Shown piece by piece: positions 1-54,745 of a stretch of 64,000 nt of DNA; position 1 is the first letter of the stretch, and each line of letters begins with the position of its first letter. A program made the translations under genes and the position numbers. The notes beneath the pieces are model-generated. The model did no database searches. It worked only from the letters and a program-made list of their open reading frames with translations, and had not been told where the DNA came from. The stretch is from a virus (lineage: Duplodnaviria > Caudoviricetes). Location: positions 32,001 to 96,000 of the IMG/VR virus record IMGVR_UViG_3300028797_000006; one strand, written 5' to 3'.

Positions 1-492
1 TACAGCGGTCATTATGATCTTGCATATCGTTTAATCCAAAAAAATTATGAACCTTTAGTTCTCGTAGAATATGAAAAACTAAAATATGAAAAACAAGTTC
101 TTTGAGATACACTATATCAAACTTATGGCTACTTGATGCTTGAGCAAAACTATAAGAATGATACTGCAACCAACTCATCAGAATTAATGACTCTTGCAAA
201 ATATGCATTCAGAGATTATTCAGCACCAGAAAGACAACACAATATTACAGTTATTGACGCGACATCATTAAAAGGTTACAAGGGTAATGAAATTAGAGTT
301 GGTGATGGTATTCAAATTGATGCGCAAGCATATTATAACGAATATGATCAAATTTATAAGAGCTTATCACAATATTTATTTATTACGGATATAAGTTATA
401 CACTTAGAAGTCCTACTGATATTAGCTTAACAGTTAATAGCATTAAATATCAAGACAAGTTAATTCAAAGACTTGTGAAATTAATCAAGTAG
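1..492 (+). CDS. 3' part of probable tail/structural protein (5'-truncated by window; TGA=Trp at 103)
   Basis: Frame open from base 1 with one TGA (VL*DTLY); C-terminus resembles phage minor tail proteins. Confidence 0.6.
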
Positions 493-613
493 ATAGATAC
501 TCGGAGGAGGAAGCAAAGCTTCTTCCTCCTCAAACAGCTAAAGAGAAGATGCGGTTTTAGCATCGAAATTGACTTCTAAAAAGAAGAAGTTTATAGTAAA
601 AAGAGGTAAAAAT

Positions 614-1459
614 ATGATTCATTGAAAATATATTAAAGGATTAAATGAGCAAGTTAGTGACAATACAACAACACCACTTTATACTCTTATAGATTTTTGT
701 GAACCGGGCGGAAGTACCACTTTTGAAGAAGCGCCGATAATTAGAACACGTACTAATAATGTCGATGTAATTCAAGGTGTTACCGAGCATGATTTGGGTC
801 ATATGATTACCCAACTAGCAAGCGGACAACATATTGATGTTCCTTTTGAGTTTCATGATGAGGTTGCTTTTGCAAGTGAAGCTATCTTTGCCAGCGAGGC
901 ATCATTCTATAATCACTTAAATTGATATCAGCCTGTTGCATCTGATCAACATAATGATTTTAATCTATGACCAACAGCAAGTAATCAAAATTTTTCTTTT
1001 GATGTAGGTGGTGAATTTCACTATACACAGCAATATAGTGGAGTCTATGCTCAATTCTGAAGCTGCAAGCAAGGCAAAGCAATAATTCAATTTTATAATG
1101 ATGATTGCTCGGTCAAGATTCCGAATGGAAAGTGCGAAGCAGTTTATTTCAATGCAACTTCTGATAAACGCGCGAAAACAGATCTCAAACCCCTTTCAAT
1201 TAATGCTCTTGACTTAATTAAACGTGTACAACTCTATACATTTAAATATAAAGATACAGATTTACCATCAATTGGTATTATTGCGCAAGATATTCAAGAC
1301 ATTAATATCGAAGGTTTTGATCTTGTAGATAATAAAGAAGCTTCTGGAGTTGATATGGATTATATGTCCATTCATGAATCAAAACTTATTTATATCCTTT
1401 GAAAAGCCATTCAAGAGCAACAAAAAGAAATTGAAGATCTCAAATCTAAAATAAAATAA
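614..1459 (+). CDS. Tail fibre/spike protein with C-terminal peptidase S74 intramolecular chaperone domain (TGA-recoded)
   Basis: RBS GAGG, ATG 614; read through 5 TGA gives SDKRAK...IGIIAQD...L(W)KAIQEQQKEIEDLK, the S74 signature. Confidence 0.85.
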
Positions 1460-1492
1460 AAGACCTTACTTGAGGTCTTTATTTTTAAAATT

Positions 1493-2107
1493 TTATTCGG
1501 GATTAGGGATTGGATCAGGAACTCTTTTCCACCTATATATAAGCGTATTTTCAACAAGTCTAACAGATAATTGTCCAACTTGAACATCGCTTCAACCACT
1601 ATTTCATATTACAGCTTTAAAATAACCGTTATAATCGCTTCCCATTGAAAAACGTACCAATAAATCTGGCTGTGTATCTATATATGCATAATAAAAATTT
1701 TGTCATGTTGGATATAAAGTCATTCTACCAGAATATACATTCATATTTTTTTCGTAAGTAATATCAAATGTTTTACCAATATATTGTTCATAATTATCTA
1801 CTTTAATATAATCTTTACTACTTGATAATTCCTGGCTTATCCATGATCCTGGAATATATATATCTTCAATTCTTTCTCATGTTCCGCCAAGTTCAGCAAT
1901 AGGGCAGCCATATTTACCAACTGTATCTTGTGTCGCCTCTATTTGTTCTAACGACATGTAAATAGAACCTATTGGATAAACAGCGTCTAATAGCAACCCC
2001 TCTATAAATAGCTCTTCTTTTATCTCCTCTTTTGCTCCTCGTTTTGCATTGTTTTTTGCATTTTCTGCTACTTGGCCAATTAATCTAATCGTATCTTTGT
2101 CTGGCAT
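1493..2107 (-). CDS. Baseplate/tail protein, YPIGSIYMS...GGTWERI...YRWKRV family (TGA-recoded)
   Basis: TGA at 1877-1879 supplies the W of GGT-W-ERI; frame continues to TAA 1493. Confidence 0.8.
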
Positions 2108-2109
2108 AC

Positions 2110-2826
2110 CTACTTCCTCCCGAAAGCATTTTGAATTGGTCCCGCATGGTTCATAACTCCATAACGTCCAATGAGTATTGCCTCCGCGACATCGTTATTT
2201 ACTTTAACATTATATTTTTCTTTAACTATTGCTACACTTAATTGTTTCTCTTGTAGTCTAGTTTTTCCGCAAGTCCCCGCGAATTTTCGCCACACATTAG
2301 GACTTACAACTTCATAAGCAATACCATATTCAGTGCACAATTCTTCTAATACACCCAATAGCATTGCTAATATCTTAAATGTAAGAACAGCACCCCATTG
2401 ATATTGAATATCTTCCATTACAATAAAGTCCGGTCTCCATTCTTTAATCACTATATCTTCAATAAACTTCTTAATTTGATGGAGTCTAGTATTAAAGTTC
2501 CCAACAAAGTTATATAAATTAAAGAACTTTAATTCTCCATTATCAAACACACTTAACCCAAAACTTTCAGTTGCCTGGTCAAAAGCAATTACTCTATATC
2601 CAGATTTTGACGGCACTGAACTAGGATTAACAAAATTAATTTTATCACATTGAGGACAACTAAAACTTGGTAAACGGAAATTAGCAAGGCTTGTCTCAAT
2701 TTCATGGCCTTTTGGACAACGAATTTTAATTATACTTTCTAAATTAGTATAATTTGAGGCATCAACTAAGCTATAACCTTTACTTTCTACTTCTGTCTTA
2801 ATTGTTTCAATAGATAAACGACCCAT
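2110..2826 (-). CDS. RuvC-like Holliday junction resolvase with N-terminal Zn-ribbon
   Basis: VIAFDQAT, IVMEDIQ, NNDVAEAILIG acidic motifs; CPKGH...CPQC. Confidence 0.8.
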   Translation of the reverse strand: MGRLSIETIKTEVESKGYSLVDASNYTNLESIIKIRCPKGHEIETSLANFRLPSFSCPQCDKINFVNPSSVPSKSGYRVIAFDQATESFGLSVFDNGELKFFNLYNFVGNFNTRLHQIKKFIEDIVIKEWRPDFIVMEDIQYQWGAVLTFKILAMLLGVLEELCTEYGIAYEVVSPNVWRKFAGTCGKTRLQEKQLSVAIVKEKYNVKVNNDVAEAILIGRYGVMNHAGPIQNAFGRK

Positions 2827-3017
2827 TAATTTTCTTCCTTATCTAACTCTTGAATACGAGTTTCGACAATTGCGGCTTTAACCATGAGGTCACTATCTAA
2901 AATCATTTTGCTAACGGCATTTCTAAGTTCTTCTCTTTTTTCAATTAATTGTTCTTTTGAGAAGCCTTCAATTTCTGCTCTAAAGTTAGCGATTACATCT
3001 TTAATATTGTTTTCCAT
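2826..3017 (-). CDS. Hypothetical protein
   Basis: ORF with RBS, coupled to the RuvC-like gene. Confidence 0.6.
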   Translation of the reverse strand: MENNIKDVIANFRAEIEGFSKEQLIEKREELRNAVSKMILDSDLMVKAAIVETRIQELDKEEN

Positions 3018-3183
3018 AATATAAAACCTCTATATCTTATTATATCGAAAGTATATTGAGAAGTCCAATTTCAAAGTAAAATCATCTTTAAGAACGGTTG
3101 ATTTTTGATTTTCATATAGATAGGCTCTATACTATTTACGGTGAGGAGAGCTAGTGCTAAAATACGCACTCTCGGAGGCTTAT

Positions 3184-3630
3184 ATGAATCCAAACGTAGT
3201 AGCATGAATAGTTGGTGCAGTAATAACACTAGTTGAAGGTGGTATAGCGACCATAATTGGTTTATGAATTAAAAAGAGATGAGATACTTATCATAGAGAA
3301 CGTGATGAGCTTGAAGAGTTGCGTGAACGCAATCGTCAAGCGGCTGAAGATAAACGTTGCAATGATATGAAAACATCAATTCATGAAGAATTTAAACCAG
3401 TAATCGCTGACATGGACTTAATGAAGAAAGCCATGCAAAAAGACATTAGACGTAGTTTACGACAAGATGCGGCTCATTATATTAAACGTGGATGAGCATC
3501 ACATCAAGAAAAAACTGAATATGATGAACTCTATTGGTGCTATCATAATTTAGGTAAAAATGGTGTCGTAGATCACGATCATGAAAAGGTAATGAATTTA
3601 CCAGAAGAACAACCACGACAAGGAGAATAA
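3184..3630 (+). CDS. Holin-like membrane protein (TGA-recoded, 4 TGA)
   Basis: GGAGG RBS; N-terminal TM helix; C-terminal LY..YH.LG.NG...LP motif of Firmicutes-phage lysis-cassette proteins. Confidence 0.7.
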
Positions 3631-3631
3631 G

Positions 3632-3973
3632 ATGGATACCATCGCATTAGTTAAGGAAATTTTCCTCTTAATTACCGCCTTTGTTGGTTTAGTAGGAACA
3701 GGAATTGGAGCCTACTTTGCAATCAAAGGAGCATTTAAAGCAGCCAAAAATAAAACCTTTCAAGAAAATTGGAATACTCTTATGGCTATTGCCGATGCCG
3801 CTATGCAAAAAGCAGAACATTCTGACAGCTCAAATAAAAAAGACATGGTTATCGGCATTGTTAAAGAAGGTGCAAAAGCAGCAGGAATTAATATTGATGA
3901 CTTCCTCGATAAGCTAAGTGCATATATTGATCAATCAATTGGCTTCTTTAATGGCATGAACGGTAAAAAATAA
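3632..3973 (+). CDS. Holin (LL-H-like)
   Basis: N-terminal TM segment, ADAAMQKAE...KK..V pattern, adjacent to the holin-like gene. Confidence 0.6.
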   Translation: MDTIALVKEIFLLITAFVGLVGTGIGAYFAIKGAFKAAKNKTFQENWNTLMAIADAAMQKAEHSDSSNKKDMVIGIVKEGAKAAGINIDDFLDKLSAYIDQSIGFFNGMNGKK

Positions 3974-4000
3974 AAAGAACCTAATGGTTCTTTTTTATTT
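3971..4000. terminator. Bidirectional intrinsic terminator
   Basis: AAAAAGAACC-TAAT-GGTTCTTTTTT between convergent genes. Confidence 0.75.
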
Positions 4001-4003
4001 GGA

Positions 4004-4603
4004 TTAGAATAGGCTTGTTTCACTATTCCAATGGTCTGGATTAATCAATGGGTCTAATGTAAAGAACACATTCTTTAGCATCATAACATCAACTAAAGCA
4101 TCATGAGCTCCTTCTGTATTAAAGCCCATCTTTTCAGCAACCAGGGTTAATTTCCATTTGCGGCCTAATTCATCGAGTCCGAATAACCCCTTTTTCTTTG
4201 CGGTGAACACCAACTCCTTTGCATCAAAGCCAGGAAACTTATCCTTATCAAAGTAATCAAAAGGTATTTTTAATTCTTTAACGCGGCATTGAAGCATTGG
4301 TCTATCAAAAGCCTCTCCATTATAGGTAAGAACTACATCAACTTCGTTTTGTTTCATCCATTCACAGAAGTCAGTCAATACTTCACTTTCTCTGCGGCAA
4401 TTTACTAAGTCCTTTGCATAAATACCATTTACTTTACTAGCCTCAGGATCGATCTTATGGGTTGTTTTAATGCGTTCATTAAAAGAGTCAATAATATTTC
4501 CTTTGTTATCGCAAATCAAGGCGGCGATTTGAATTGGAGCCGCACTGTTCCAATATACACTTGTTGTTTCCGTATCTAAAACTGCTATTCTATTGTATTT
4601 CAT
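4004..4603 (-). CDS. DEDDh 3'-5' exonuclease (Pol III epsilon-like)
   Basis: LDTETT, YNGEAFD, HDALVDV motifs. Confidence 0.9.
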   Translation of the reverse strand: MKYNRIAVLDTETTSVYWNSAAPIQIAALICDNKGNIIDSFNERIKTTHKIDPEASKVNGIYAKDLVNCRRESEVLTDFCEWMKQNEVDVVLTYNGEAFDRPMLQCRVKELKIPFDYFDKDKFPGFDAKELVFTAKKKGLFGLDELGRKWKLTLVAEKMGFNTEGAHDALVDVMMLKNVFFTLDPLINPDHWNSETSLF

Positions 4604-4604
4604 A

Positions 4605-5747
4605 TTATAATCCTATTTTAAACGCATCCTTTCATATCATTCATGGTATATTATTGATTGAGATGGACTTATCTCCCCACTGTGTAAGCAGGAATTCGCT
4701 GTCTTCTCATGTTTGTCTTAATAAATCTCTAAAGGTTTCCTTCCATTCTTGAGGTCTTGACCAGAACATTACATCGCGGTCGAATTGCAGTCCGCGTCCG
4801 TATTTCTTCGTGATGTATTCAAGCCAACTTAACCTGAAGTCTTCTTTTGTCCAATCTGCAAGAGTTTCAAATAAGAAGAAGTAAGGAGTATCAAGACGAC
4901 TTTGAATCATCTTAATCTCTACTGCAACTTTTCTTCTCTTGGCATCTACAATTATTTGTTTAAGTCGAGTAAAGTCCAATTGGGCGTTCTCTCGTTCTAT
5001 CCAATGGTCCGGGGCGTAAAAACGCACTCTCAGAGGTCCAAGGGCAATATGCGGTTTTCGAAGCTTTATTTCTTCAACGACCTCCGCGGCCGCATCATAA
5101 TCTTCCATATTTATTTCTAGCCACTGTAGATTACAGCCAGGAGTTAGATTAAGGTTCATAAACTTTTCAAAGATATTTTGATCAACTACTAGTTTTTGAA
5201 TCCAGATTGGTTCAAAAAAGGTAACATTTTTTACTTCTTGAAGTTTATCTAATACCTTTTTGATAACCTTATTTGAAGAAGTCCATAGATTTCTATCTGT
5301 CACAATAGCTCTCTTGTTTGAGAATGCATTGGTCCAATCTTGAACCAGCGGCAACATATTGCCATGATCGTCTAATAATCTTATTTGTTCGGCTCGCTCT
5401 AGTTTGGTATTCTTTTCTGGATAGAGTAGATAATCTGGTCGGCAAGCCATCATGGCAGGACTCATGCGCCAATTTATTCTCATTCGGAACGCATCTCCCC
5501 ACCATTTAACTTTAGGATTAGTGAAGAATTCGATTGGCGGGTTCTTCGTCTTTTTATTTTCCTTAACTATATAGTAAATATCATAAGGACGATAGATATC
5601 ATCTTCCTTCAAAACGAAGTTAACCGCGTCTCCATTTTGTTTATGAAAACTGGATATCTTCATAACGTCAGGATTAAAACAATTCACCTTTTCTTTTGAA
5701 TAGTAATAGTCTAAATCCCAAATTGTTACTCTCGTATGTCCTCGCAT
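4605..5747 (-). CDS. Degenerate radical-SAM-like phage protein lacking CxxxCxxC (3 TGA in C-terminus)
   Basis: N-terminal NPDVMKISSFHK.NGD and PDYLLYP resemble a phage radical-SAM family; readthrough ends at TAA 4605 next to the following ATG. Confidence 0.55.
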
Positions 5748-6318
5748 TCTACTATCTCCATTTCTTCTTTATAATAATACTCTGGATGGGCTTGACAGAA
5801 AGCTTTAGCGACAAGTTCAGAGCCTACGATGCAGATTAATTTACTAATATCAGGCCAAACGACATTTTGCCATATGGTATAATAATAAACTACTCTCGCA
5901 AGATCGTCATGGTGATATTTATATAGTGGTCTAGGCATCCATTTTCTCCTCCACTCGAACAATAGCATTGTTTAATAATTTTACAAATTCTTCAAAATTA
6001 GTAGAACCTTCTGCACAAACTTTAACTAATTGAAGCACCTGTCGAACTGTTGCTAAAGTCTCTTTTCTTTCAAGATCGGCTCTTTCCTTATGATATTCTT
6101 TCCATGGTTTAGGCATCTTTCTTATCCTCCAAATTCTCTACGTCAATATTAAAATGTTTCTTGTAGTTTTTAATTTGTCTTTTGGTGAACTTAACACGAG
6201 AAAGCATTATATGCAAATCGCCAATATGAGCAACTGCAGTATATTTCTTAACGAAATCACCTATGCTTTTAACCTTTGATTTTTTAACAGTACTATCTAA
6301 CGTTTTATTTTTAGGCAT
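5726..6318 (-). CDS. Three small coupled hypothetical genes (6109-6318, 5931-6116, 5726-5938)
   Basis: Each starts within an ATGCCTAR overlap with the upstream stop. Confidence 0.6.
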
Positions 6319-9300
6319 CTTTTTTCTCCTCCAATTCAACAAAGTCACCTTCTTCATCCAAAATAATTCTTAAGATAGATTTTCTGCCAGTATTTTTGTA
6401 TACCTTCGGTACAAAGGTCATTCCTCTTTGAATACCTGTGACCAATAAATGGACACCTTTTTCAAAGAAACTATCTTGTTCAATATCCTTTTCTCCTTCC
6501 TCATCAATATCACCTGCAACTGCTATCATTGTCGCGAATAAATCTTTATAAACCTTTAAGTTTACAACACCATCTGGACATTGTAAGGTTACAAGACCTT
6601 TCGTTCTATCTCTATCGATGACTGTGCCCGCGATTGTATACAACTTCATTTTTGGGATTTCTTTTCCCTTAATTAAGAAGTTACCATCTTGCGCACCTTC
6701 AATGATACTATCGACTCTATTGACCGCATATGGCAATTGTTTGATGACCTTTCTCAATGGATGATCTGTATAGTAGAAGTTAATACTATCTAATTCCCAT
6801 TGAAGTTTATCACCTGAACAATACTTTTCCCACTCATCGTGGAACAATCTTTCATTTAATGTCTTTAATAATTCATCATGATTGTCTGTGATATATTTTT
6901 TAATTTTATTCATTTGTCCTTCATAGAAAACATCCCAACGTTTACTACTAAGGACTTTTCTTGGCTCACCTTCAATAACAATTTCTTCTCCGATGATACC
7001 TGAATCTCTAAAGATTTGTCTCCAAGAATCAACTTTATTTGTAGGAATCGCTAATCTGTCCGCGCAATACCAAATCTTGTTAGGATCCCTATTTCTTCTT
7101 AATTCTTTTGTGAGTTTATACAAATCACTTTGATACTCGAACTCATCTGGTAACAAATGTAAATCAATTAACATATTTGCATTTTGCATTGTTAATTTCT
7201 TCTTCATATCACAGATGCTTGCAATATAGTTCTGCAAAATCATTTTTGTTGTCTTTGCTTCTAACTTATTGAACGCACCGCATTTAATTAAATTAATCAC
7301 TTTATCTTTTGTGATAATTCTCTTTTGAACTTTATTTAAGAAATCATCTAATGATGTGAATGGTCTATTAATCATAATTTCATTGATGACTGGTTCTGTG
7401 ATACGTGTGATACCTTTTAATCCATATAAAATACTATTATCTTTTACATCAGGAGTGAATGAAAGTCTTGATGTATTGATATCCGGCATTTCAATCTTAC
7501 AAACCGTTCTAAACTTATCTAATGCGGTCGCAAGTTTCGCATAATCAATTTTATTTTGTGCTTTCTTTTCTTCGCCTGCGTCACCATCGACAATATCGTT
7601 TTCAATTAAGTTATAAAAGTCAGATGCATTAATCGCGCTACTATCAACTGACAAACACGCGCAGTTCCAATAAATAATCGGATACTTATATGCTAAATTC
7701 ATCTCTTGAAGTGCGATAAGCGCATAACCAGTTGTGTGAAGTTCACTAAATGAATAACCTAACTGCGCACTAATTTGCACATACCAAATATAGCTCAATA
7801 AATTATTTGATGCACCTAAAGCTCTGCCCTTTTCAAAGAACATATCTTTAACTGCTTCAATTTCTCTAAATTGTTTCTTTGCGATTGTCTTTCTTAATTT
7901 ATTGGCTTCTTTCATATCGAATCCACTAATCTGCGGATCCATAACCATTTGCATAACCACTTCTTGAGACTCGCCAACACCATTTTTCTTTAACAAATAC
8001 TTCTCTAATAATAACATTTCTGCCTTATTGAGACCATGTGCGCGCATCTCATCATACCACAACTGTGGAACTCTTTTAAAACGAGCATATTTTTCAAGTG
8101 GAAGCTCACCCTCACCCATTAATCTCATTAACGATGAGCTAATCGCTAATTCGTTCAAGCTACGAGGTTGAATACTTTTAATTGCTTGAGAACCAACTAA
8201 TGTATCGAACTGGAACAAACTACTAATTTCTCCACGTCCGACCATATCCCACATTTCTTCAGATGTATAATCTAAGACTTGCGGCGACAAATATTTATTA
8301 TATGTTGCACGAAGTGAACCTTGCCACTCCATTGTGCCATCTTCCAACATATAGTTCATACATTGTCTAATTCTATCTAATGCGGATACAGTTAAAAAGT
8401 CATATTTAACCATACCACATCTTTCTAATGTATGAAGGTCATACGAAGTAACTAACTGTTCGTGTGATGTCTTCATAACACTATTATAATCATTAAAATC
8501 ACCATTGACACAAACGACACCTGATGCGTGAACACCAAGTCTTGTGATAAGACCTTCAATATTTTGTGCTAACTTCCAAAGTTTTGGATGTTCTTTCATT
8601 TGATCGACAAATGCTTTGATTGGCTTCTTATCGTCGCCATTACCATAATAACATTCGCTTAAAGTCCAGTCAAAACCTCTTTCGTTAGGAATCATTGAAG
8701 TTATATATGTGATTGTATCATCATCAATCTTCAATCCACGACCCGCTGTCTTAAGTGCGCTCTTTGTTCCTTCCGTACCAAATGTACAGACATTAATAAC
8801 GTCACCACCGATACTATTAAAATAATCACGAACTGCCTTAAAAACCGCGAGACGTTTATCTGACTCTGTATCAAAATCGATATCAGGAAGGTCAGGACGA
8901 GATGGATGTAAGAAACGCCAAACAAATGGCAAATCCATTTGAACAGGATTCATTTGCGTGATACCCAAAAGATAATTTATTAATAATGCACCCGCAGATC
9001 CACGACTTGGACCGCTAATTGAGTTAGCTTCATTCCAAACTAAATCCATAATTTTGTTCATTGTGATAAAGTAGTCGGCCATTGGCTGTTCAATTTTGTC
9101 ACCGACTTCTTTCAATGTCCAAAATTCTTCCTCTAATCTTTTATAATAAACTTCGTCTGTCCAACCTTGTTGATACTTTTCAACATATCCGTGCGCGACC
9201 AAACGAGCCAAATAATTATCGCTCTTATTATCTGTATGAAGATAATGATAAAAGTTAGGATAAGTTTCTTCATCAACATCAGCAAAGACTTCTAAGTCAT

Positions 9301-10330
9301 CCGCATACTCATCCCAATGTTCATATTCTACGTGCGCAAGTTTTGGCTTTTGCTCAAGCTCATAAAATCTGCACATATCTTTAATTTTATTTGTGTTTGC
9401 TACCATTTCTTCAAATTTATCATCTGAAACATATGGCATTAAATCGCGAACCTCTTGTTGTCTCATAACATATGCATACTTATAAAATTCATCAACTTCT
9501 CTATCTTTTGATGACTTTGAGTTCAAGAATGCTTTATGCGTTTCACGTTCATCAACATTCAAATAGTGCGCGTCAGTAGTGAAGATAAAAGGATATTTAC
9601 CCCAATATCTTTCTATCATAAATTCATTATATGCATTTTGATCGCTTCCAATTTCATTTGGTTGAAGTTCAATATAAAAGTTACCTTTACCAAATAAATT
9701 TTGCATCGCGGTTAAATGATTATCTAACTTCTCTTGGAAGTTAATGCCCATTTCCCATGGCAATCTGTCAGTTGGATTACTTAACTTCTTCCAACACCAT
9801 GCAGCATAACCACCAAGACATGCGGTTGAACATACTAAATGTCCACCTTTTACATATTCAATTAAGTCACTTGGATAAGTTGGGGTTCTTAAAATACCTC
9901 TGAACCATGCCCTTCTCCAAGCACTACTACTTAATTGTTTTAATTGATGAAATCCTTCCGCATCTTTCGCAATAAGAATTAAATGCCAAAAATGCACTGG
10001 ATGATTGCCATCCATCTGCATTTCATCTAATCCTTCTTCACTTAAATAAATCTCGTTACCAAGCATTACTTTGAAGTCCAAAGCAATTGATGCAGTTTCA
10101 TATCCTGGAAATTCAACTGGATACTTTAATTCCCACAATTCTTTTAATTTCTTTTTATATATATCTAATGCTTGAAGAGTTCCGCTGAGACAATCATGTT
10201 CTGTCATTGCTACACCACTTAATCCGATTTCCCAAGCATAATCAACAGTTCGTTCAAAACGATTGATACTATCAATAATTTTAATGTTGGAATATTCAGA
10301 GTGACAATGTAGTGTGCAATAATTTCTCAT
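6311..10330 (-). CDS. dnaE: DNA polymerase III alpha subunit (family C)
   Basis: PHP motif LHCHSEYS, SRGSAG, PDIDFD, GVHASG, KYDFL; 26 Trp, all TGG. Confidence 0.97.
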   Translation of the reverse strand: MRNYCTLHCHSEYSNIKIIDSINRFERTVDYAWEIGLSGVAMTEHDCLSGTLQALDIYKKKLKELWELKYPVEFPGYETASIALDFKVMLGNEIYLSEEGLDEMQMDGNHPVHFWHLILIAKDAEGFHQLKQLSSSAWRRAWFRGILRTPTYPSDLIEYVKGGHLVCSTACLGGYAAWCWKKLSNPTDRLPWEMGINFQEKLDNHLTAMQNLFGKGNFYIELQPNEIGSDQNAYNEFMIERYWGKYPFIFTTDAHYLNVDERETHKAFLNSKSSKDREVDEFYKYAYVMRQQEVRDLMPYVSDDKFEEMVANTNKIKDMCRFYELEQKPKLAHVEYEHWDEYADDLEVFADVDEETYPNFYHYLHTDNKSDNYLARLVAHGYVEKYQQGWTDEVYYKRLEEEFWTLKEVGDKIEQPMADYFITMNKIMDLVWNEANSISGPSRGSAGALLINYLLGITQMNPVQMDLPFVWRFLHPSRPDLPDIDFDTESDKRLAVFKAVRDYFNSIGGDVINVCTFGTEGTKSALKTAGRGLKIDDDTITYITSMIPNERGFDWTLSECYYGNGDDKKPIKAFVDQMKEHPKLWKLAQNIEGLITRLGVHASGVVCVNGDFNDYNSVMKTSHEQLVTSYDLHTLERCGMVKYDFLTVSALDRIRQCMNYMLEDGTMEWQGSLRATYNKYLSPQVLDYTSEEMWDMVGRGEISSLFQFDTLVGSQAIKSIQPRSLNELAISSSLMRLMGEGELPLEKYARFKRVPQLWYDEMRAHGLNKAEMLLLEKYLLKKNGVGESQEVVMQMVMDPQISGFDMKEANKLRKTIAKKQFREIEAVKDMFFEKGRALGASNNLLSYIWYVQISAQLGYSFSELHTTGYALIALQEMNLAYKYPIIYWNCACLSVDSSAINASDFYNLIENDIVDGDAGEEKKAQNKIDYAKLATALDKFRTVCKIEMPDINTSRLSFTPDVKDNSILYGLKGITRITEPVINEIMINRPFTSLDDFLNKVQKRIITKDKVINLIKCGAFNKLEAKTTKMILQNYIASICDMKKKLTMQNANMLIDLHLLPDEFEYQSDLYKLTKELRRNRDPNKIWYCADRLAIPTNKVDSWRQIFRDSGIIGEEIVIEGEPRKVLSSKRWDVFYEGQMNKIKKYITDNHDELLKTLNERLFHDEWEKYCSGDKLQWELDSINFYYTDHPLRKVIKQLPYAVNRVDSIIEGAQDGNFLIKGKEIPKMKLYTIAGTVIDRDRTKGLVTLQCPDGVVNLKVYKDLFATMIAVAGDIDEEGEKDIEQDSFFEKGVHLLVTGIQRGMTFVPKVYKNTGRKSILRIILDEEGDFVELEEKKDA

Positions 10331-44424: not shown

Positions 44425-46113
44425 TTAATCATTTATAATGTAAGTTACTTCAATTGTTTTGAAACGAGTATTCCCGCTACCGCTTGAAGCAGTAATTGTT
44501 ACACTTGTAGGTGGATCTGTTTCGGTATTAAACCAAACACTTGTAGCATTAGCGCCCTTCCAATCAAGAGTATCTACATCAGAAGAGAATGTTTTTTGTG
44601 CAGCGCTAACAACATAATTAATAGTTTTTATATAACCATCAATACCATCTGCTATATGAATAGTCATAGTGTTGTTGCCATATATACGGAGTTCTCCACC
44701 ATTTTTAAAGTATTTTGGTTGAGAAGATCCGCCACCTTTTCCGCATAGCATTTGAACGTTGCCATCACCAATATCTACTTCAATACCATCTAATACGGTA
44801 TCTGCGTCATATATTGTAGAGAATGTAATTGATTCAGTATATTCAGTTCCACCGCCACCGCCACCAGTAATGGTAATTTCTTTTTCATCATAAGTACCGT
44901 CCTCACAAGTAGCACGGATTAATAACGTACCAGCACTGACACCAGTAATATCGCAGTAGAAGTGACCATCTTCTTCATAAGAATCCAATTCAACTTCACC
45001 GTCACCATCAATAATTTCTCAAGTCATTTCTTCTGGTAGAACAATACATTTAGCTTCTCAAGTAACAGTTTCATCCGCAGCAACACCACCAATACCAATA
45101 ATTTTAACTCTATGAATTGGTGCATCTTCAAGGTGAGTATATAAGACACCATATCTTATACCAACCTGATTGCTTGCATTGTCGAATCTAAAGCGAACCT
45201 TTTGCGCATAAACATCTTCAGGCAATCATCCTCTTAATCAGAAATCGCTAGATACTAGACCACTGTCTTCCCAGGTAACGCCGCCGTCTTCAGAATAATC
45301 TAAATGGACAGTTTGTTGTTTTCCGCCCCATTGATCAAAGCTAATTGAGATACCATCAATATAACGTCTCAATTCATCTGTTTCGATGATAAATGGACCT
45401 TGTTTCGTAACAGGTTCATTATTAATCGGTTGTTCTGGACCTTGATGCGAAGCAGTTAAATAAGCAACCGCATAACCGAAGTCAATTTCATGTTCAACAT
45501 AACCACTTGTCCATTCATCGAAATCTTCAATTTCTCTGAAGTTCATAATAGCTGAATTTTCATCAGGTTCATAATGAATATTTACATTATAAGTATAACT
45601 GTCGCCGATATCATAATAACTATCATAGTAAGTAACAGTTACACCTGTTGTTTGCCCTTCGGTTTGTTCACCAATATCTACACTAGAAGGTTCGACATAT
45701 TTACTTAAACTTTCTTTTGAATAAGAGGCATAGCAATCACCATCAAATTCAATTTCATCGCCATAGATATAATCTTTAGTCATATCTTTACAGGTGACTT
45801 CTATTTCCATCGGCTTAACAGTGATATTATAAGAAGCTTCTAATCCCTTAAAATATGTATAAACAGGATAGCTTCCCGCCACTTCGATGTCCACATCAGA
45901 CAAATCTACTTCTGCAAATTCGCTTACATCTGCACTACCAATTGTCTCGGCACGTGCTGGATCATAATTATCTTTAATCCAAATAGTTCCATCACCTCTA
46001 TCAGTAGCTACAGTAGACATCCATTCATATGGATCAATTTCTGTTGTATTAACTTTAATCTTGCCTTTAATTTCGGCAGAGCTTTCCACTTTAATATTGT
46101 TTTCTAATGGCAT
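44425..46113 (-). CDS. Acidic Ig-like domain virion/surface protein (TGA-recoded)
   Basis: Track ORFs 45238-46113 and 44425-44988 join; beta-rich Ig-like segments. Confidence 0.7.
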
Positions 46114-46466
46114 GCCTCTACCTCCGCTTTCTTTTTGGCGAAGATTGTAACGATAGTTCCTTCATGATCGATGAATTTCGCGCAATAAATATATTTGCCT
46201 ATTGGGAACTTACTACTAATCTCTTCTGTAAAATCAAGATTAACGGAGTTACCTTCAATATTTGAGAAACGGAATTCATGAACAAGTTCTTTACCAATAG
46301 ATGTATAGAACTCGAATACAATTTCATCATTTTCATCGAAAATTAATGGTTCATCGTCTTTTGTTAACGAAATACCTCACTCAATGGTGAAGGTATTATT
46401 AACGTATCATTTCAAAGTCTCACCTTCGAATCGCGGACTTTGTTTAGCAGGTTTAATTTCTATCAT
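46104..46466 (-). CDS. Hypothetical structural protein (2 TGA)
   Basis: GGAGG RBS; open to TAG 46104, overlapping the next ATG. Confidence 0.6.
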
Positions 46467-46658
46467 AAACGCATACCTCCATTAATCATAATTAGTATAA
46501 GATTAGACAAGAGATAAGTCAAAATTTATAGTATGAGCGACGGGATTACTAAAGAGAAGCGCGGTTTTTGAAGGGTAATGAGCTTCTCAATCAATTTTAT
46601 TATATAGTTGAAATTGCATCTTTCTATAAAAATCAATATAATACTTTAGGAGATTATT

Positions 46659-49274
46659 ATGATCGAAGATTTAACTAATACTGAATGATTGATTAAAAGT
46701 AATGCTACAATAGTAGAAACAACTGTAAGTTATGCAATTAATTTTGAAAGCAATAAAGAAGATTATTCTAGTATAACTTTTCTTCTTGGCGGAAATAATA
46801 TACATTTCTTACAATATGATCAAAAAGATGTAGCCTTTACTAACAATAGTTATTATGTTTTTCCTCCTGTCAATCAAGATTATCGTTTAATTAAAATTAC
46901 TGGCGGCGAGGATGCAGTTAATATAAATTTAATTATTTGATTAACTACAAATGCAAAAAGAGTCCACAGTTATGATTTATTAGATAATAATATCGTAAGA
47001 GAAGATAAAAAGACTTCTTATTTAGTTGGTGTAAATGAATATAATGAAGTTGACACATCTCTTTATACAAAAGTTACATATACACCAAAATGACCATATA
47101 TTATTTTTGAAAGTAAAACTAGTTTTACTTTAGAAGTTTATGATCATATTAAACATTGAGATGGTATTTTAGAGTATTCTACAGATAGAAAACACTGGAA
47201 TACTTGAAGTGGCACAACTATTAGTTCTGCTTATAATAATATTAAAGAAAAACAATGTATTTTTGTTCGTGGATTGAATAATACAGTTATTACAGGATAT
47301 TCAGGAGAATATAGATGAGTTTTAGATGGTTCACAAATAGAATGTCATGGTAATATCGAGGCTTTATTAGATTATAGAAAGATGCAATTATCTCATCCAA
47401 TAATTGGGGATTATTGTTATGCTTGTATGTTCTACAGATGTACAAGTCTTACAACAGCCCCAGAACTTCCAGCTGAAACTTTAGCTAATTATTGTTATGA
47501 ATCTATGTTTAGAGGATGTACAAGTCTTACAACAGCCCCAGAACTTCCAGCTGAAACTTTAGCTAATTATTGTTATGAATCTATGTTTAGAGAATGTACA
47601 AGCCTTACAACAGCCCCAGCATTACCAGCTGAAACTTTAACACAACTTTGTTATGAACATATGTTCCAGGGGTGTACAAGTCTTACATCAGCTCCAGAGT
47701 TACCGGCTGAAACTTTAGCCGACAACTGCTATGAATATATGTTTGCAGGATGCACAAGTCTTACATCAGCTCCAGAATTACCTGTTGAAACTTTAGCTAA
47801 CAATTGTTATCGCGGTATGTTTAGTGGTTGTATAAAACTTGAAGAAGCACCAGAACTACCTGCTAGAAGAATAAATGATTATAGCTATGCTTTTATGTTT
47901 GAAGGATGTACTAATCTTGTAGAGGCACCAGAATTGCTTGCTACAGTTGTAGGGAGTAACAGTTATGAAGGTATGTTTAAGGGATGTACAAGTCTTACAA
48001 TGGCTCCAGAATTATCAGCTGAAACTTTAGCCGCTTATTGTTATAGTCGTATGTTTGAAAATTGTACGAGCCTCATATCTGCTCCAGAATTATCAGCTGA
48101 AACTTTAGCTAACAATTGTTATCAATATATGTTTGCAGGATGTACAAGTCTTACATCAGCTCCAGAGTTACCAACTGAAACTTTAGTTAACGCTTGCTAT
48201 CAATATATGTTTCAAGGATGTACAAGTCTTACTACAATTCCAACATTACCTGCTGAAACTTTGGCTACTTATTGCTATAATTATATGTTTAATAAATGTA
48301 CAAGTCTCGTGTCGGTTCCAACTTTACCGACTGAAACTCTAGCTCAAGGTTGTTATCGAGGTATGTTTAATAAATGTACAGGTCTTATACTGCCCCCAAC
48401 TCTACCAATCGAAACTTTAGCTAACAATTGTTATCAATATATGTTTGAAGGATGTACAAGTCTTACATCAGCTCCTGCTTTACCTGCTGAAACTTTAGCA
48501 GATTATTGTTATGAATCTATGTTTAGGGGATGTACAAGTCTTACATCAGCTCCAGAGTTACCAGCTGAAACTTTAGCTAAATATTGTTATGCACATATGT
48601 TTGCAGGATGTACAAGTCTTACAATAGTTTCAACCTTACCTGCTGAAACTTTAGTTCAATATTGTTATCAATATATGTTTAGTGGATGTACAAGTCTTGC
48701 AACGGCTCCTGTTTTACCTGCTGAAACTTTAGCTTACAATTGTTATGAATCTATGTTTGAAGGATGTACAAGTCTTACATCAGCTCCTGCTTTACCTGCT
48801 GAAACTTTAGCCGCTTATTGTTATGAATCTATGTTTAGTGGATGTACAAGTCTTACAACTGCTCCAGAGCTTCCGGCTGAAACTTTAGCTAATTACTGTT
48901 ATCAATATATGTTTCAAAGATGTACAAGTCTTACATCAGCTCCTGAATTACCAGCTGAAACTTTAGCTAATTACTGTTATCAATATATGTTTCAAGAATG
49001 TACAAGCCTTATAAAACTACCTTATTTACGATGCAAGAACTTGACAGCTGGTTGCTATGGATATATGTTTCAAAAGTGTCATTCACTTCAACTTATTCAG
49101 TCGATAGCGCCAAGGGGTCAATACATATATCCTTATAGTATCCCACCTACTAGAGACGGCACTAGTAGCCAATCATCTGCATTAAGAGGTATGTTTGACT
49201 ATACTGGAGGTATTTTTGTGGGTACGCCAGTAATTAATGAGCAATATTATACAAATAATGAACCAATTGGTTAG
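46659..49274 (+). CDS. BspA/TpLRR-type leucine-rich-repeat protein, 871 aa (6 TGA in N-terminal part)
   Basis: AGGAG RBS; about 21 copies of 26-aa LPAETLA..CY..MF.GCTSLT.AP. Confidence 0.88.
47410..49080 (+). repeat. 78-bp coding tandem repeat
   Basis: Recurrent GCTGAAACTTTAGC and TGTACAAGTCTTAC at 78-bp period. Confidence 0.9.
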
Positions 49275-49635: not shown

Positions 49636-51058
49636 TTAGATGCTCTCTTTCTTTTTCTCCCAAGGCTCTTCGCCTTGAATTGTTTTAATTATATCTTCTG
49701 CGACCCAGTCGGCCAAGAACCATTTTACCTTGACCTCAAAGTCATCAAATTCTCTAGCCCAATGTTCTTTGAGCTTATCTATTTTTTCTCTTGGGATATT
49801 GTGCTTAGTCATCAATTCGTCCAAGCTATCAAAATCAATCTCAAGAGTTGCGTGCACAATTTGTCGTGTTTCTAGAGTTTTTATATTTTCCATTTAGTGC
49901 ACTCCTTAAAGCATATGTCTGGACGGAACTTTATATAAGCTAATTCTTACTACATCATTCTGTTCTGCAGGCTTATCAAAAGTAACTCTTGCAGTACGCT
50001 TAATATGTTTAGCTTTCCTTTTTATAAGTTTTATCCTGTTCATCTAGCGTACCTCATATTCTCTAACGTAGGCGTATTCTTCTACATTAAGTTCATCATC
50101 AATTTCGTCTTTTCTAGCTACTGCGCGATCATAGTCCGCATAGACAGAATCAAGACGAGTAGAGGTGACTTTAGTTTCATAATAATCATCATAGCCGTCA
50201 TCTTCATCCCAGCAAAGATCGTTAGATACTCTTTCTATTGTATCAACTAATACACAATAGACAACACGTTTAAGTTGACCGCCATTATAAGTGATAGTAT
50301 CTTTTATATTGACGGTGCCCATTAATCTAATATCTCCTCTACTGTTTGTTTAAGAAGATTTTTATGATAGCAATAATGCCATCCGCCGCCTGGAATCATA
50401 TCACCTGGATTATGGATGCCAGATACATAATAGCGGCCGTAAGTATCGTCAAGAGAAGCAAAGGTTCTAGCGATGAACTTAGCTGCCTTGAACTCATTAC
50501 AGATACAAAGAGTATGGACTTTATCGTTCACAATCTCGTATACCTGATATTGCGCAAATTCTTCTACTTCATACTTATACATATTAAATACTCCTTACTA
50601 TATCCCAGCAAGCGTGGATTCCCAATAAAAATATTGGACCCAAGAATATATAAGTTGTTAATACAAATAAACACCAAGGACTAAAGAAAATAGCAAAGGT
50701 AATTGCCACAGCTAATGGAGCTAATGATATTAGTATCATAAGAGCTAATAATAAACAATAACAATATTTTTCTAAAGCGGTTTCAAATTTCATTTTTATT
50801 TTCATATTAGTCTCCTTAAGCTACATCACAAATTAAATCAACTACATCTATCGGATCGTCGATTTCACCATGATAATACATATTAAGTATGTCATTAATT
50901 TTTTCTAATTTCTTTTTATTCTCTTCCGCCTTTTTAAGATATGTTTCCATAAAGACTCTAAATTCTGCATCTTTAGGTGCTTTTAATTCATCCATAAATA
51001 GACTAAAGGCTTCTAATGGTTTTAACATTTTACCCATAATTATCTCCTTATAAGTCAT
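49636..51058 (-). CDS. Run of small early hypothetical genes (49636-49893, 50044-50322, 50322-50582, 50584-50805 membrane, 50816-51058)
   Basis: Tightly packed ORFs with RBS, TGA-free. Confidence 0.6.
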
Positions 51059-52160
51059 TTCTTAATCTAACCACGTAAGGATGGCGAAGTCTGCCCAAAT
51101 CGTTCGTTTGCATTGCCTTGACGACTGCATATAATTCGCCATGCTCAATCATCTCTTGCGCTTCGGCTGTTGCAAGCCATTCTCTATCTTCATCAGTTAG
51201 ACCGCTTGTAACGTCACAAGTTGTATTATTATATTCGACTGTGATGCCGTTCGCCCAATGATAGAAGTAAGGCTTAGTCACAGGATAACCTGGTATAGTT
51301 TTTCTATCGACATCTGGTTTAATTTCCACTAGCTCATTAATCTCGTATAATTCGCCTGTTTCTGGATCTTCACTATTTTCACCAGTAAAGATTTCCCAAT
51401 AAGGCCATGTATCTTCGCAATCACCTTCATACCATTTCTTTGGTGGTAAAGCAGCGATTACTTTTAATTCCATTTCAGGAAGTGATTGCTTAAGCTTTAA
51501 TGTTTTCCAAGCTGTTCTGGTGCCTGGCATATATGGATTGTCTTTTCTTTGAATGACTAATCCCTCTCCACCTAAACCAATTATCTCATCGGCTGCCTCC
51601 GCGAAGTCAATGCCATTATAGAGGATAGGTGTTCTCTTAAAATATTCTGCCTCATAATCTTGCGGGACTAAACCTGTGACTTCCTCCGCATATTCGCAAA
51701 TACGCTTTTCATAAGGTGTATTGGTTAGGTCTGTACCCGCGAACATTAATATATCAAATACAAAGGCATAAAGAGGATTATTCTTTTGTCTTTCTATTGC
51801 CTTTTCTGGTAAGCATCTAAGGATTGTGCCGACTGTATTCGCATTAGTGCCGCGTTCTTTAAAACATAGCTCTGCGAGAACTACTGTGTTATCTGGCCAG
51901 TTATCCATTTCCGCTACAAGATGCGGAACTTTGGCTGTATAGTCTCCGTAGACACCAGTCACTTTACTGATACTGCGGCTACGAATTAAGTTTTTTCCTT
52001 TTGTATAATGGATGCACATTGACCAATCGCCATCGCGCTTTTCGGTCGCAATATAAAGGTTGTCTTTGTCTTCGATCATTTCTCTTCTTTTTGGACAATC
52101 ATTTTCATTATTATAGTACTTCATTGGCTCCATCATTGCGAAGTCATCTATTGTTCTCAT
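51048..52160 (-). CDS. ATP-dependent DNA ligase
   Basis: TEKRDG (motif I), FVFDIL, EGLVI, LKLK, LRHP. Confidence 0.88.
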   Translation of the reverse strand: MRTIDDFAMMEPMKYYNNENDCPKRREMIEDKDNLYIATEKRDGDWSMCIHYTKGKNLIRSRSISKVTGVYGDYTAKVPHLVAEMDNWPDNTVVLAELCFKERGTNANTVGTILRCLPEKAIERQKNNPLYAFVFDILMFAGTDLTNTPYEKRICEYAEEVTGLVPQDYEAEYFKRTPILYNGIDFAEAADEIIGLGGEGLVIQRKDNPYMPGTRTAWKTLKLKQSLPEMELKVIAALPPKKWYEGDCEDTWPYWEIFTGENSEDPETGELYEINELVEIKPDVDRKTIPGYPVTKPYFYHWANGITVEYNNTTCDVTSGLTDEDREWLATAEAQEMIEHGELYAVVKAMQTNDLGRLRHPYVVRLRNDL

Positions 52161-52244
52161 ATTTTTATTCCTTTTTAATCTATATTATTATAGTAGACTT
52201 ATATGGCTTAAGCAAGAAAAAAGAGAGTAAAGCCTCTCTTTTAT

Positions 52245-53468
52245 TTATTCTTCTGCATGTTTAATCTTATGAACAATAGGTTCAGAGAAGCCATTACCCA
52301 TAACAATAATTGTTTCTGAGCTCCAATCATCTCTAATTTTTAAGATTCCTTCACGTGCACCCAATTCCACAAGTGCATTAGTAAACCATTTAATAATATG
52401 ATTGACTTCAGTTTCTCCGCCATAATCACGAAGATCCCCTTCAATTGCGATTAAAGAACCTTCTCCAAGGACATTTTCATTCGCCTCAGAAGTATCTACA
52501 AAATACCATTCAAGACTTCCTTCACTGCCCATAGGAATTCCGCAACCTTTTTCATTATCATCAAAAGCTTTACACCAGACATTTTGATGGAAATCTTCCC
52601 ATTCAGGTGAACGATACTTAAATTGTAGTCCGTCTTTCCAAAGGATAGGTTTACCCAAAATCTTTTCAAGTTCTTCTGGTTTTCTATATGAATATTGTAT
52701 TGTTCCTATAGCGTGTGTCCATTGACTCATAGTTAGTTCTCCTTATAATAACTTTCTAAAGCGCACATAATATTGTAAAGATTTAATACAATTTTTCTAT
52801 TTGTTTCACTTAAAGGTACGCCGTCGCAGTCTACACCAGAATCAAGTTCTTTTTTATATTCTGCTATTCTCCATTCGATACCTTTTTTAAGTTCTTCAAA
52901 GGCTTTAAGTGATTTTTCAATAGTATCTAAGTTAGTTAAATCTATAATACTTCCATATGTAGTATTACCTTCTACTTTAATTAATTTGGCTTTAATCTTA
53001 TAAAAAGCTTCTAATTCTTTATTCATATTTCTTTAACTCTTCCATAAGGTCATTATAATAGTAATCATCTGTGTCTAATAACCCGGCAATCAAAAAGCCT
53101 GTGCCAAACCATTCTTTATTCTTTGTTCGTAAGAAATAACATTCAGTAGGTTCATCACCTTTTTCATAACGATAAGTGCTGCCATCTTTATTGACCATAG
53201 TAGCTTTATAAATAATATGTTGTTCAGGAGCATATAACCAATAACAGCTATCTATCTCATATGCTAAATCCTCAAGAAGTTCTTCATCAACTTCTTCATT
53301 ATCTAGGTCGATAGCTTTATCAATGCGCCAATAATCTAAACGACTTAAGCGGATTTTTCCGTCATCAAAACATTTATAAATTTTGCCGACTTCTGGTGCT
53401 GGTGAATCGTGTCCTTCACCACAGTTAATTACTACAACACCACCATCATTCTTTTGTTTGAATTTCAT
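52245..53468 (-). CDS. Three hypothetical early genes (52245-52730, 52733-53026, 53019-53468)
   Basis: Packed ORFs with RBS, TGG-only Trp. Confidence 0.6.
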
Positions 53469-53557
53469 AATCTTATATCCTTTTTAATCTATATTAGTAT
53501 AGCAGACTTTTTAGATTAAGGCAAGTAAAAAGCCCTTTTTAAGGGCTTATTTATTGA

Positions 53558-54745
53558 TTACTTATATTGTGCGCCTCAAACTACGAATCGTTTTGCAGAA
53601 GAGCCAGTGAATGTAATTGTTGTTTCTTCACTAATAGATAATGTTATCTCTTGTAAGTAATTATCTGCGCTTCCATTTAAAGTGAAAGGATTATTATTAG
53701 CTATACCGGAATCTGAAGTAAGAGCGATAGCTTCATGAGTAATACCGCTAATATTGAGTGAAAGGCTATTTACTCCATTCCAAGCAGCAGCATAGAATTT
53801 TAGTTCAGTTGCAGTTCCAGGAACTGTTATTGACATTGCGCCGCCTTTTTTAGAGGTGCCCACCTTAATGCCATTAATACCATTTACAGTACAAGAAGTG
53901 CCTTCTGTTACACCAGTCATAGTCGCATCTTGCCAAGAACCAGTAGACTCTTTCCAATGAGCTGTAAGTGTTATATCTTCAGTAATTGTCAATGGAAATG
54001 AGACCTCTGTTTCTCCAATATACCAAGCATCAAATTCTTTTCCGGTTGGAGCAGTAAATTCAGAGTGAGTAGGAGTTGTAATTTGTTCATTTTCAATTAC
54101 TCTTATTGAATCTTTTGTTCCTGACCCCTCGCCGGCGCTGAATGATACTGTATATTTAATTACAGGTGCTGGCTTATTATAGGCAAAGTTTTCTAATTGT
54201 GTACTTCTATCCTCATCAGTCCAGTTACATCTTGATTCCGCAGCACCAAATTCATCTTGTGTATAAAAATAAATTGGTCCATAAGAATCTCCAACATTAC
54301 CAGAATATGCTCTGCCATAATCATTTGAGAAGCTATATAATAATGTTCTTGAGCCTTCATGTTGTTTTAATAATCCACTTGATAAATCTCAAGTTGAACT
54401 AGTGTTTTTTAAGGCAGTATCAGAAGTACCTTTATAACCTAAATTATATGAACCGCGTTGAATAGTAACTGTTGTATTAGTAGTAAAAGTAACTGTAAAT
54501 AGTGCTTCTGATGGGTCATTGGTTGTTTCCATTTTATCTCCACCAGTATAGGTTAAGTAATGTTCTTCATCATCAATAAGTGTGCGGCAATAAAATTCAT
54601 TTACATAATCACTACTTGTCGCAACATAATCTCTAGTTAATGCCAATGTATGAAACTCTGGCTTAGCTATAAATACTGTCGTAAGCGCGGTAATAGACAC
54701 ACTAACGACAGAAAGTAAAGTTCATTTTTTATTAGTTGTAGTCAT
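53558..54745 (-). CDS. Secreted/surface protein with signal peptide and InlB-B-repeat-like domain (TGA-recoded)
   Basis: MTTNKK(W)TLLSVVSVSITAL signal; YTVSF..GEG...F.AWY...ITEDITLTAHWK. Confidence 0.7.

Follow-up and report, generated by a model that had tools for sequence, protein, structure and literature searches.

Partitioned use of TGA as a tryptophan codon and a two-armed suppressor tRNA in a phage genome from the bovine gut

Results

Layout of the locus and the replisome operon

We analysed a 64,000-nucleotide stretch of DNA from a virus of the Caudoviricetes (Duplodnaviria), hereafter the window, which comprises bases 32001-96000 of the 118,402-bp single-contig record IMGVR_UViG_3300028797_000006. 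The analysis centred on an operon of replication genes that lacks in-frame TGA, on the surrounding genes in which TGA is a sense codon, and on a tRNA with the anticodon UCA, tRNA(UCA), that is encoded between them. Coordinates are those of the window unless stated otherwise. The two ends of the record share a 127-bp terminal overlap and, since this occurs on one contig, the genome is complete. It has a G+C content of 35% and comes from bovine gut metagenomes, in which identical DNA is present. The record is best explained as the genome of a cattle-rumen phage of 118 kb that is tailed and of virulent type. INPHARED held no annotated close relatives, by DNA or by protein. Nine relatives were found in IMG/VR, with DnaE identities of 59-81%.

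The replisome operon (5726-22322, minus strand) contains 14 genes, including a small open reading frame (ORF). According to Pfam assignments, its products include DnaE (6311-10330), a RecJ-like protein (10920-12731), a Toprim/primase-like protein (12732-13802), a DnaB-like helicase (13802-15394), the single-strand annealing protein Sak (15791-16558), a GyrA-like protein (17924-20131) and a GyrB-like protein (20379-22322), all encoded on the minus strand. To the left of the window and reaching into it lies the virion module (genome 3756-33459, plus strand), encoding TerL, the portal, a major capsid protein (MCP)-like protein, a tape measure protein of 1600 residues and a tail fibre of 1746 residues. 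A second fibre/receptor-binding-like module (35065-49274, plus strand) is followed by an early arm, a long run of small genes on the minus strand from window position 49271 to the genome end.

TGA is partitioned between transcription units

An initial annotation of the window, made from its sequence alone, described the replisome block as free of in-frame TGA and DnaE as having 26 tryptophan codons, all TGG. Our counts agree on both points: the 5,306 codons of the block include 60 TGG, 26 of them in dnaE, and no TGA. The genome outside the operon contains 215 TGA and 281 TGG codons (Fisher p = 2.7e-14 versus the operon). Gene-by-gene tabulation of TGA and TGG under codes 4 and 11 confirmed the partition. 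About 30 ORFs of at least 60 residues in positions 1-54745 were intact under code 4 and fragmented under code 11, as expected of genes that require TGA to be sense. TGA terminated none of the genes: all 148 called ORFs end at TAA (108) or TAG (40), in line with the earlier observation that no gene stops at TGA. The pattern expected of a constitutive code-4 phage and host, with TGA everywhere through A/T bias, was not found, the replisome operon having TGA at 0 of 60 tryptophan codons.

We compared the composition of the block with that of the rest of the genome. Among other two-fold, purine-ending codons, the A-ending share is 0.78 in the block versus 0.80 elsewhere, and out-of-frame TGA occurs at 23.8 per kb in the block versus 21.6 per kb elsewhere. 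These data indicate that avoidance is limited to in-frame TGA and that composition is not its cause. An ORF on the opposite strand of the block (5968-6300, plus strand) contains three TGA codons. It was set aside as probably spurious, being of low complexity and having no counterpart in the relatives.

Recoding is concentrated in the late blocks. The virion module contains 67 TGA and 33 TGG codons, the fibre module 26 and 21, and the minus-strand genes of 22528-34807, 32 and 22. The early arm contains 12 TGA and 126 TGG. The initial annotation had called the early right-arm genes TGA-free; of the 12 TGA codons counted here, most precede the probable true start codon or belong to small ORFs of doubtful status. 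Its division into standard replication genes and recoded structural and lysis genes stands as a tendency with exceptions in both directions. Genes of replication and nucleotide metabolism that carry TGA encode UvrD (2), RNase H (2), a dUTPase (1) and the anaerobic ribonucleotide reductase NrdD (4), while the genes for TerL, the MCP-like protein, a 542-residue fibre protein and a holin-like protein are TGA-free despite their late type. The partition thus tracks the transcription unit or the time of expression, and not strictly gene function.

The partition is conserved in diverged relatives

The replisome block is TGA-free in all nine IMG/VR relatives, in which recoded neighbours occur in the same gene order. 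The gene directly downstream of dnaE contains 3-18 TGA codons in the relatives, and the rare apparent exceptions within their block are codons upstream of the true ATG. Judged from these alignments, the codon partition is evidently old and under selection.

In one relative of 92 kb (L012), inserts at 3598-4404, 6708-7745 and 12082-12945 split early genes, dnaE among them. At least two ORFs in these inserts are of the LAGLIDADG type, and all three inserts contain TGA.

TGA codons align with tryptophan

The initial annotation had placed TGA at the tryptophan positions of protein motifs. The motifs GGTWERI, LWKAIQE, RDWG and PEWLN were all present, the last two in a fusion protein carrying a Stealth domain, in which all 13 tryptophan codons, including those at the named motif positions, are TGA. 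Orthologues from eight relatives were also compared. The relatives' TGA codons stand opposite TGG (56) and TGA (36) in this phage, then mostly opposite codons for Phe or Tyr. Conversely, TGA codons of this phage stand opposite TGA (36) and TGG (15) in the relatives, then opposite codons for Tyr and Phe. Of the four TGA codons in the NrdD gene, one coincides with a conserved tryptophan of the T. maritima enzyme, for which a structure has been solved. Overall, the interchange of TGA with TGG demonstrates, at the level of aligned codons, that TGA is read as tryptophan.

A suppressor tRNA with an additional hairpin

The gene for the suppressor tRNA(UCA) (28247-28343, minus strand; 97 nt) was identified using ARAGORN and the Rfam tRNA model (57 bits). 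It lies within the interval covered by the initial annotation, which overlooked it. The predicted tRNA has a 7-bp acceptor stem, a 4-bp D stem, a 5-bp T stem, G73 and an encoded CCA. Its first anticodon-type arm, GCGGT-CUUCAAA-ACCGU, is followed by a linker of 6 nt and then by a second hairpin whose loop is GUCCAAA. This loop consists of a U33-like residue, CCA, A37 and A38, and is therefore that of a tRNA-Trp anticodon arm. Both hairpins are present in the minimum-free-energy fold. Among the 31 tRNA genes of the genome is one for tRNA-Trp(CCA), outside the window, with which tRNA(UCA) has acceptor pairs 1-5 and G73 in common. No tryptophanyl-tRNA synthetase (TrpRS; PF00579) and no class-I release factor (PF00472) were found in the complete genome. 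Charging of the tRNA must therefore fall to the host. Competition with release factor 2 (RF2) is not eased by any recognizable phage factor.

ARAGORN labels tRNAs with this anticodon as selenocysteine tRNAs. In a genuine tRNA-Sec, the acceptor/T domain comprises 13 bp (8/5 or 9/4) and the D stem 6 bp; the stems of tRNA(UCA) are those of an ordinary tRNA, and the genuine tRNA-Sec genes recovered in the same scans differ from it in appearance. The long variable arm could also suggest a Ser, Leu or Sec identity. This was rejected as well, since TGA aligns with TGG and aromatic codons and not with those for Ser or Leu, and since the tRNA-Sec architecture is absent.

To survey long tRNA(UCA) genes, we scanned IMG/VR with a pattern that specified the UCA arm and a long distance to the T loop, and nothing else. 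The scan called 84 such genes, and UCCA occurred in the additional arm of 44 of the 62 unique sequences. Of 220 cells in the flanks of UCCA, 198 were paired, compared with 33-53% in shifted controls, and the loops of the additional arm are nearly always G/C-U-CCA-A-A. The other long tRNA(UCA) genes of the scan include true tRNA-Sec types. In an alignment of 18 homologous sequences, the additional helix (helix 4) is 96% paired, and four of its five pairs change on both sides. At many of the loci, coding coverage increases only under a code in which TGA is sense. Standard-length tRNA(UCA) genes with the same arm were fewer, with 24 genes called among 30 matches. The motif alone is not diagnostic: UCCAAA also occurs in the arm loop of some true bacterial tRNA-Sec genes (Caulobacteraceae and a few others).

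About 20 long tRNA(UCA) sequences are of another type, with an acceptor beginning GGCGACG (e.g., L159, L176 and L220). Their arm loop contains UUGAU, resembling the anticodon loop of tRNA-Gln, and their neighbourhoods look TAG-recoded, not TGA-recoded. A further observation concerns the D arm: U11-A24 occurs both in the phage tRNA-Trp(CCA) (L003:3792-3865, minus strand) and in the suppressor, the tRNA-Trp of the candidate host described below having U11.G24. In E. coli, the classical Hirsh UGA suppressor arose by a change to A24. Linking the phage A24 to that suppressor is speculative.

A tRNA-Ile(UAU) of the same design

The phage encodes a second tRNA of this kind. tRNA-Ile(UAU) (60587-60681, minus strand; 95 nt), in a tRNA array of 14 genes (58280-60766, minus strand), has an additional hairpin with the 7-nt loop CAGAUAA. 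This loop displays GAU, the ordinary Ile anticodon, plus A37 and A38. A scan of IMG/VR that was just as unbiased found GAU at that position in 20 of 22 unique long tRNA-Ile(UAU) sequences, versus 0.9% of shuffled arms. Long-armed phage tRNAs for Thr, Pro, Arg-UCU, Lys and Met have arm loops of 4-6 nt without the cognate anticodon, indicating that the pseudo-anticodon is not a general by-product of arm insertion. The early arm also contains, next to these tRNA genes, a full-length ROOL RNA (Rfam RF03087; 61404-61998, minus strand), which scored 222 bits against a gathering score of 99.

Promoters, translation signals and a candidate host

In the 200-bp gap upstream of gyrB lies a perfect σ70 promoter, TTGACA-17 nt-TATAAT (22409-22437, minus strand; 12/12 match). 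The start of the TGA-free operon thus coincides exactly with a perfect promoter of the host type, which reads from 22437 to 22409. Ten near-consensus sites occur genome-wide, and the nine besides the perfect one belong to early regions, all on the minus strand. Between the promoter and the gyrB start at 22322 is a hairpin resembling a terminator (22349-22366), with runs of T in both strands; it could be a leader, an attenuator or the end of the upstream unit. A σ70-like promoter, TTGACA-17 nt-TATATT (28359-28387, minus strand; 11/12 match), occurs directly upstream of the tRNA(UCA) gene and is not conserved in the relatives L014-L016. Contigs from RNA and DNA runs over 25000-34000 were fragments of relatives only and yielded nothing on tRNA processing or timing.

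Shine-Dalgarno (SD) motifs precede approximately 59% of the genes, versus 7.5% of random positions. The promoters and initiation signals of Bacteroidota are generally unlike SD and TTGACA/TATAAT. The use of both by the phage is therefore taken to argue against a host from that phylum.

A lead to the host came from a tRNA pattern scan of species-representative genomes. The same two-armed tRNA was found on a 41.7-kb contig of a small metagenome-assembled genome (MAG) classified as 'Bacilli bacterium'. This contig and others of the MAG represent a relative of the phage, the two being 68-74% identical in nucleotide sequence across the replisome block. The MAG encodes prfB (483 bits; cut-off, 370) and prfA, both above NCBIfam cut-offs, and no stop interrupts its rpoB. 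Two class-I release factors were present in all 13 genomes sampled from the family of this MAG. A tRNA(UCA) of the family's own Trp type is missing from 56 of its 57 genomes, the one match being the phage contig. The anticodon arm of the family's native tRNA-Trp, GCGGU-CUCCAAA-ACCGU, is identical to the UCA arm of the phage tRNA except for C34U. These features fit a family of standard-code Bacilli as candidate host, linked to the phage by co-binning of a related phage, which is a lead and not proof. The two-armed tRNA(UCA) also occurs on short contigs (L239 and L252; G009 and G011) of two 1.1-Mb Coriobacteriia MAGs. These MAGs have one release-factor match only, and one of them has TGA inside rpoB; they may represent recoded bacteria or contain mis-binned phage.

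Other genes of the window

The window opens with the end of the virion module, where the C-terminus of the 1746-residue tail fibre (whole gene, 23 TGA and 2 TGG) is encoded within 1-1459 (plus strand); positions 569-1459 (plus strand) encode the S74-chaperone tail fibre/spike protein with the LWKAIQE motif (5 TGA, 0 TGG). The gene at 1493-2107, called a baseplate gene in the initial annotation, contains the GGTWERI motif. A lysis-like cassette (3154-3973) consists of genes for a membrane protein with an N-terminal transmembrane helix (3154-3630, plus strand; 4 TGA, 1 TGG) and for a holin-like protein (3632-3973, plus strand; 0 TGA), the PHROG holin matches in the cassette being weak. Scans of about 70 proteins against Pfam, PHROGs and NCBIfam detected holin-like membrane proteins and no endolysin or other peptidoglycan hydrolase. 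Directly downstream of the replisome operon is a gene for a 380-residue protein (4605-5747, minus strand) with 14 TGG and 3 TGA codons. All three TGA codons lie in the last 34 codons, such that the standard code would yield 346 residues and suppression 380.

Upstream of the replisome operon, replication-accessory genes (22528-25839, minus strand) encode a UvrD-like helicase (2 TGA), a 201-residue ORF product (2), RNase H (2) and an exonuclease subunit (0). The most heavily recoded gene of the window (25967-27742, plus strand; 18 TGA, 4 TGG) encodes a 591-residue protein without a known family. The Stealth protein discussed above is, according to Pfam and PHROG, a 576-residue fusion of a cytidylyltransferase with Stealth regions CR1, CR2 and CR4 (28389-30119, minus strand). 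It is followed by recoded accessory genes (30119-34807, minus strand) for a GIY-YIG endonuclease, a dUTPase and a GT2 glycosyltransferase, with one TGA each, and for a 545-residue protein of unknown kind (8 TGA, 0 TGG). The second fibre module includes genes for the 542-residue repeat fibre protein (35878-37506, plus strand; 0 TGA) and a BspA-type leucine-rich-repeat protein (46659-49274, plus strand; 6 TGA). In the early arm, a run of seven genes that includes one for an ATP-dependent DNA ligase (50044-53468, minus strand) has no TGA and 22 TGG codons.

Two features outside the window bear on the biology of the phage. A RpoD/SigA-like sigma factor with regions 1.2, 2, 3 and 4 is encoded at L003:16390-17238 (genome 111390-112238, minus strand) by a gene with no TGA. 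The gene for NrdD (L001:15499-17821, plus strand) lies within the virion module together with that for its activase, NrdG. The presence of these two genes points to an anaerobic host.

Discussion

Proposed mechanism

The initial annotation proposed that the host uses code 11 and that the phage switches code during infection. Of the explanations considered, this is the best supported, with the qualifications that the host is linked by co-binning only, that the split follows operon or time, and that the pattern has been published already. Support for a switch comes from the exclusion of TGA in nine relatives, from a tRNA(UCA) in a phage that encodes neither a TrpRS nor a release factor, and from the occurrence of both prfA and prfB in the candidate host family. 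We consider it likely that a standard-code host is infected by a phage that brings its own reading of TGA as tryptophan, its early genes being code-neutral and its late genes dependent on the suppressor. The host would be an SD-using bacterium, probably of the Bacillota, in which TGA is a stop. Genes translated before the suppressor is in place, namely those of the early right arm and of the replisome operon behind consensus σ70 promoters, would carry no TGA. The phage tRNA(UCA) would then accumulate and be charged by the host TrpRS, after which full-length products could be made from the virion, tail-fibre, lysis-like and surface-polysaccharide genes and from several genes of nucleotide metabolism. 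As the phage never stops at TGA, read-through would be harmless to its own proteins. The partition could reflect either an adaptive gate on the late genes or a mere constraint on the early ones.

Several observations weigh against this explanation. The host is known only through co-binning of a relative, which can be an artefact, and a search of window 1-20000 gave no CRISPR link, the 25-40-nt matches in genomes of the candidate host family that were followed up all lying outside repeat arrays. No endolysin was found, and a wall-less host is formally possible. Given its host-type promoter, tRNA(UCA) may already be produced at the onset of infection, and a sharp switch would then be blurred. 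Finally, the TGA-free terL, MCP-like and fibre genes, which are of the late, strongly expressed class, and the recoded replication-related genes suggest that timing alone may not account for every gene.

Alternative explanations

If the host itself read TGA as tryptophan, as a constitutive code-4 member of the Mycoplasmatales or of a recoded gut lineage, the split would reflect expression level or chance. Such a host would be consistent with a phage that never uses TGA as a stop and lacks a detected endolysin, and with the Coriobacteriia MAGs, given their two-armed tRNA(UCA) contigs, single release-factor match and TGA in one rpoB. We nevertheless regard it as very unlikely: TGA accounts for 0 of 60 tryptophan codons in a block in which 78% of comparable codons end in A, a code-4 host gives no reason for purifying selection across nine diverged relatives, and the only host lead has prfB as well as prfA and belongs to a family in which 56 of 57 genomes are without a tRNA(UCA) of their own Trp type. 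Recent import of the replisome block from a standard-code phage, with TGA not yet gained, has the least in its favour. Phage genomes are mosaic, and the G+C content of the block (0.33-0.37) is slightly above that of the most recoded genes (0.28-0.31), but the block is TGA-free, with recoded neighbours in the same order, in nine relatives that reach down to 59% protein identity, and its synonymous A/G bias equals that of the rest of the genome. We consider such an import extremely improbable.

Another possibility accepts a standard-code host but dispenses with a temporal gate: the suppressor would be present from the start, and TGA would have been purged wherever incomplete suppression costs most and would be tolerated in the other genes. 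The consensus host-type promoter before tRNA(UCA), the TGA-free terL, MCP-like and fibre genes inside recoded late modules, and the confinement of the TGA codons of the 380-residue gene to its last 34 codons could all be understood in this way. By contrast, the largest late proteins are heavily recoded (23 TGA for the tail fibre and 6 for the tape measure protein), the TGA-free set corresponds to the units that host-type promoters precede and not to the size or abundance of the proteins, and the tRNA promoter is not conserved in the relatives. On balance, suppression without a gate appears unlikely, and a phage-driven code switch in a standard-code host remains our preferred explanation.

A possible role for the additional arm

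Both TrpRS and IleRS use position 34 as an identity element (PMC9976931). This suggests a reading of the two-armed tRNAs in which one arm decodes and the additional arm offers the host synthetase the native anticodon. This one genome holds two tRNAs with a non-native first anticodon base, each with a conserved copy of the native loop. Tentatively, the additional CCA and GAU hairpins may fool the host TrpRS and IleRS into charging UCA and UAU tRNAs that would otherwise be poorly accepted, which would explain a code switch without a phage synthetase. We found no natural tRNA of this design in the open-access literature; the only precedent is engineered, a 'pseudo-anticodon' variable arm proposed to recruit the anticodon-binding domain of a synthetase (Mukai 2020, PMC7590224). 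In that case, the gain depended on fusing a further anticodon-binding domain to the enzyme (PMC7590224), and geometry is accordingly a real objection to the proposed charging. If the additional arm is an identity handle, it would provide a ready natural design for genetic-code engineering.

Comparison with known systems

The closest parallel is with the Agate phages of approximately 127 kb from the guts of cattle and other animals, which are TGA-recoded with replication genes in the standard code (Borges et al., bioRxiv 10.1101/2021.08.26.457843; later Nat Microbiol 2022). Their structural and lysis genes lie in several recoded modules, they encode suppressor tRNAs and have lost TGA as a stop, and their predicted hosts are standard-code Firmicutes or Bacteroidetes; the recoding was proposed to gate lytic genes, and the charging of suppressors without phage synthetases was stated as open (10.1101/2021.08.26.457843). 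As judged from the published description, the present phage is like them in reading TGA as tryptophan, in size class, in its cattle-gut source, in its standard-code replication genes, in its recoded modules, in its tRNA(UCA) and in having no TGA stop. The early genes of Agate phages contain recoded homing endonucleases (10.1101/2021.08.26.457843), which the TGA-bearing endonuclease inserts in early genes of the relative L012 resemble. A two-armed suppressor tRNA is not described in that paper. Jade phages have the same reassignment, with a code-change operon for TrpRS, RF1 and a tRNA that is itself in the standard code (10.1101/2021.08.26.457843). Unlike these, the present phage has neither a TrpRS nor a release factor and must rely on the host TrpRS.

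The crAss-like and Lak phages that read TAG as Gln likewise combine block-wise late recoding, a suppressor tRNA and a standard-code host (Yutin et al. 2021, PMC7886860; Peters et al. 2022, PMC9523058), and their recoding has been validated by proteomics (Peters et al. 2022, PMC9523058). They differ in codon and amino acid, in their Bacteroidota hosts and in lineage; the present phage has SD sites and TTGACA/TATAAT promoters. The pattern of codon partition is thus already published for this kind of phage, and the genome described here is one more clean, complete example for the published code-switch model. What it adds is a TGA-free operon that begins at a perfect host-type promoter and a candidate host family of standard-code Bacilli.

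The tRNA-Trp(UCA) of Mollicutes and tRNA-Ile(UAU) of the Mycoplasma mobile type are ordinary four-armed tRNAs of approximately 76 nt that are charged by adapted synthetases. The phage tRNAs differ from these versions in their length of 95-97 nt and in their fifth arm. The decoding anticodons are the same as in code-4 Mollicutes and in TilS-lacking bacteria such as M. mobile (PMC3575796). The tRNAs of Mukai 2020 (PMC7590224) share with those of the phage a variable-arm hairpin that copies the cognate anticodon arm; they are synthetic and built on allo-tRNA scaffolds for HisRS, whereas the phage design, as predicted from the genes, is natural and of Trp and Ile type. The suppressor tRNA design is the less ordinary part of this system, and it touches the question, open in the literature, of how a suppressor is charged when the phage brings no synthetase.

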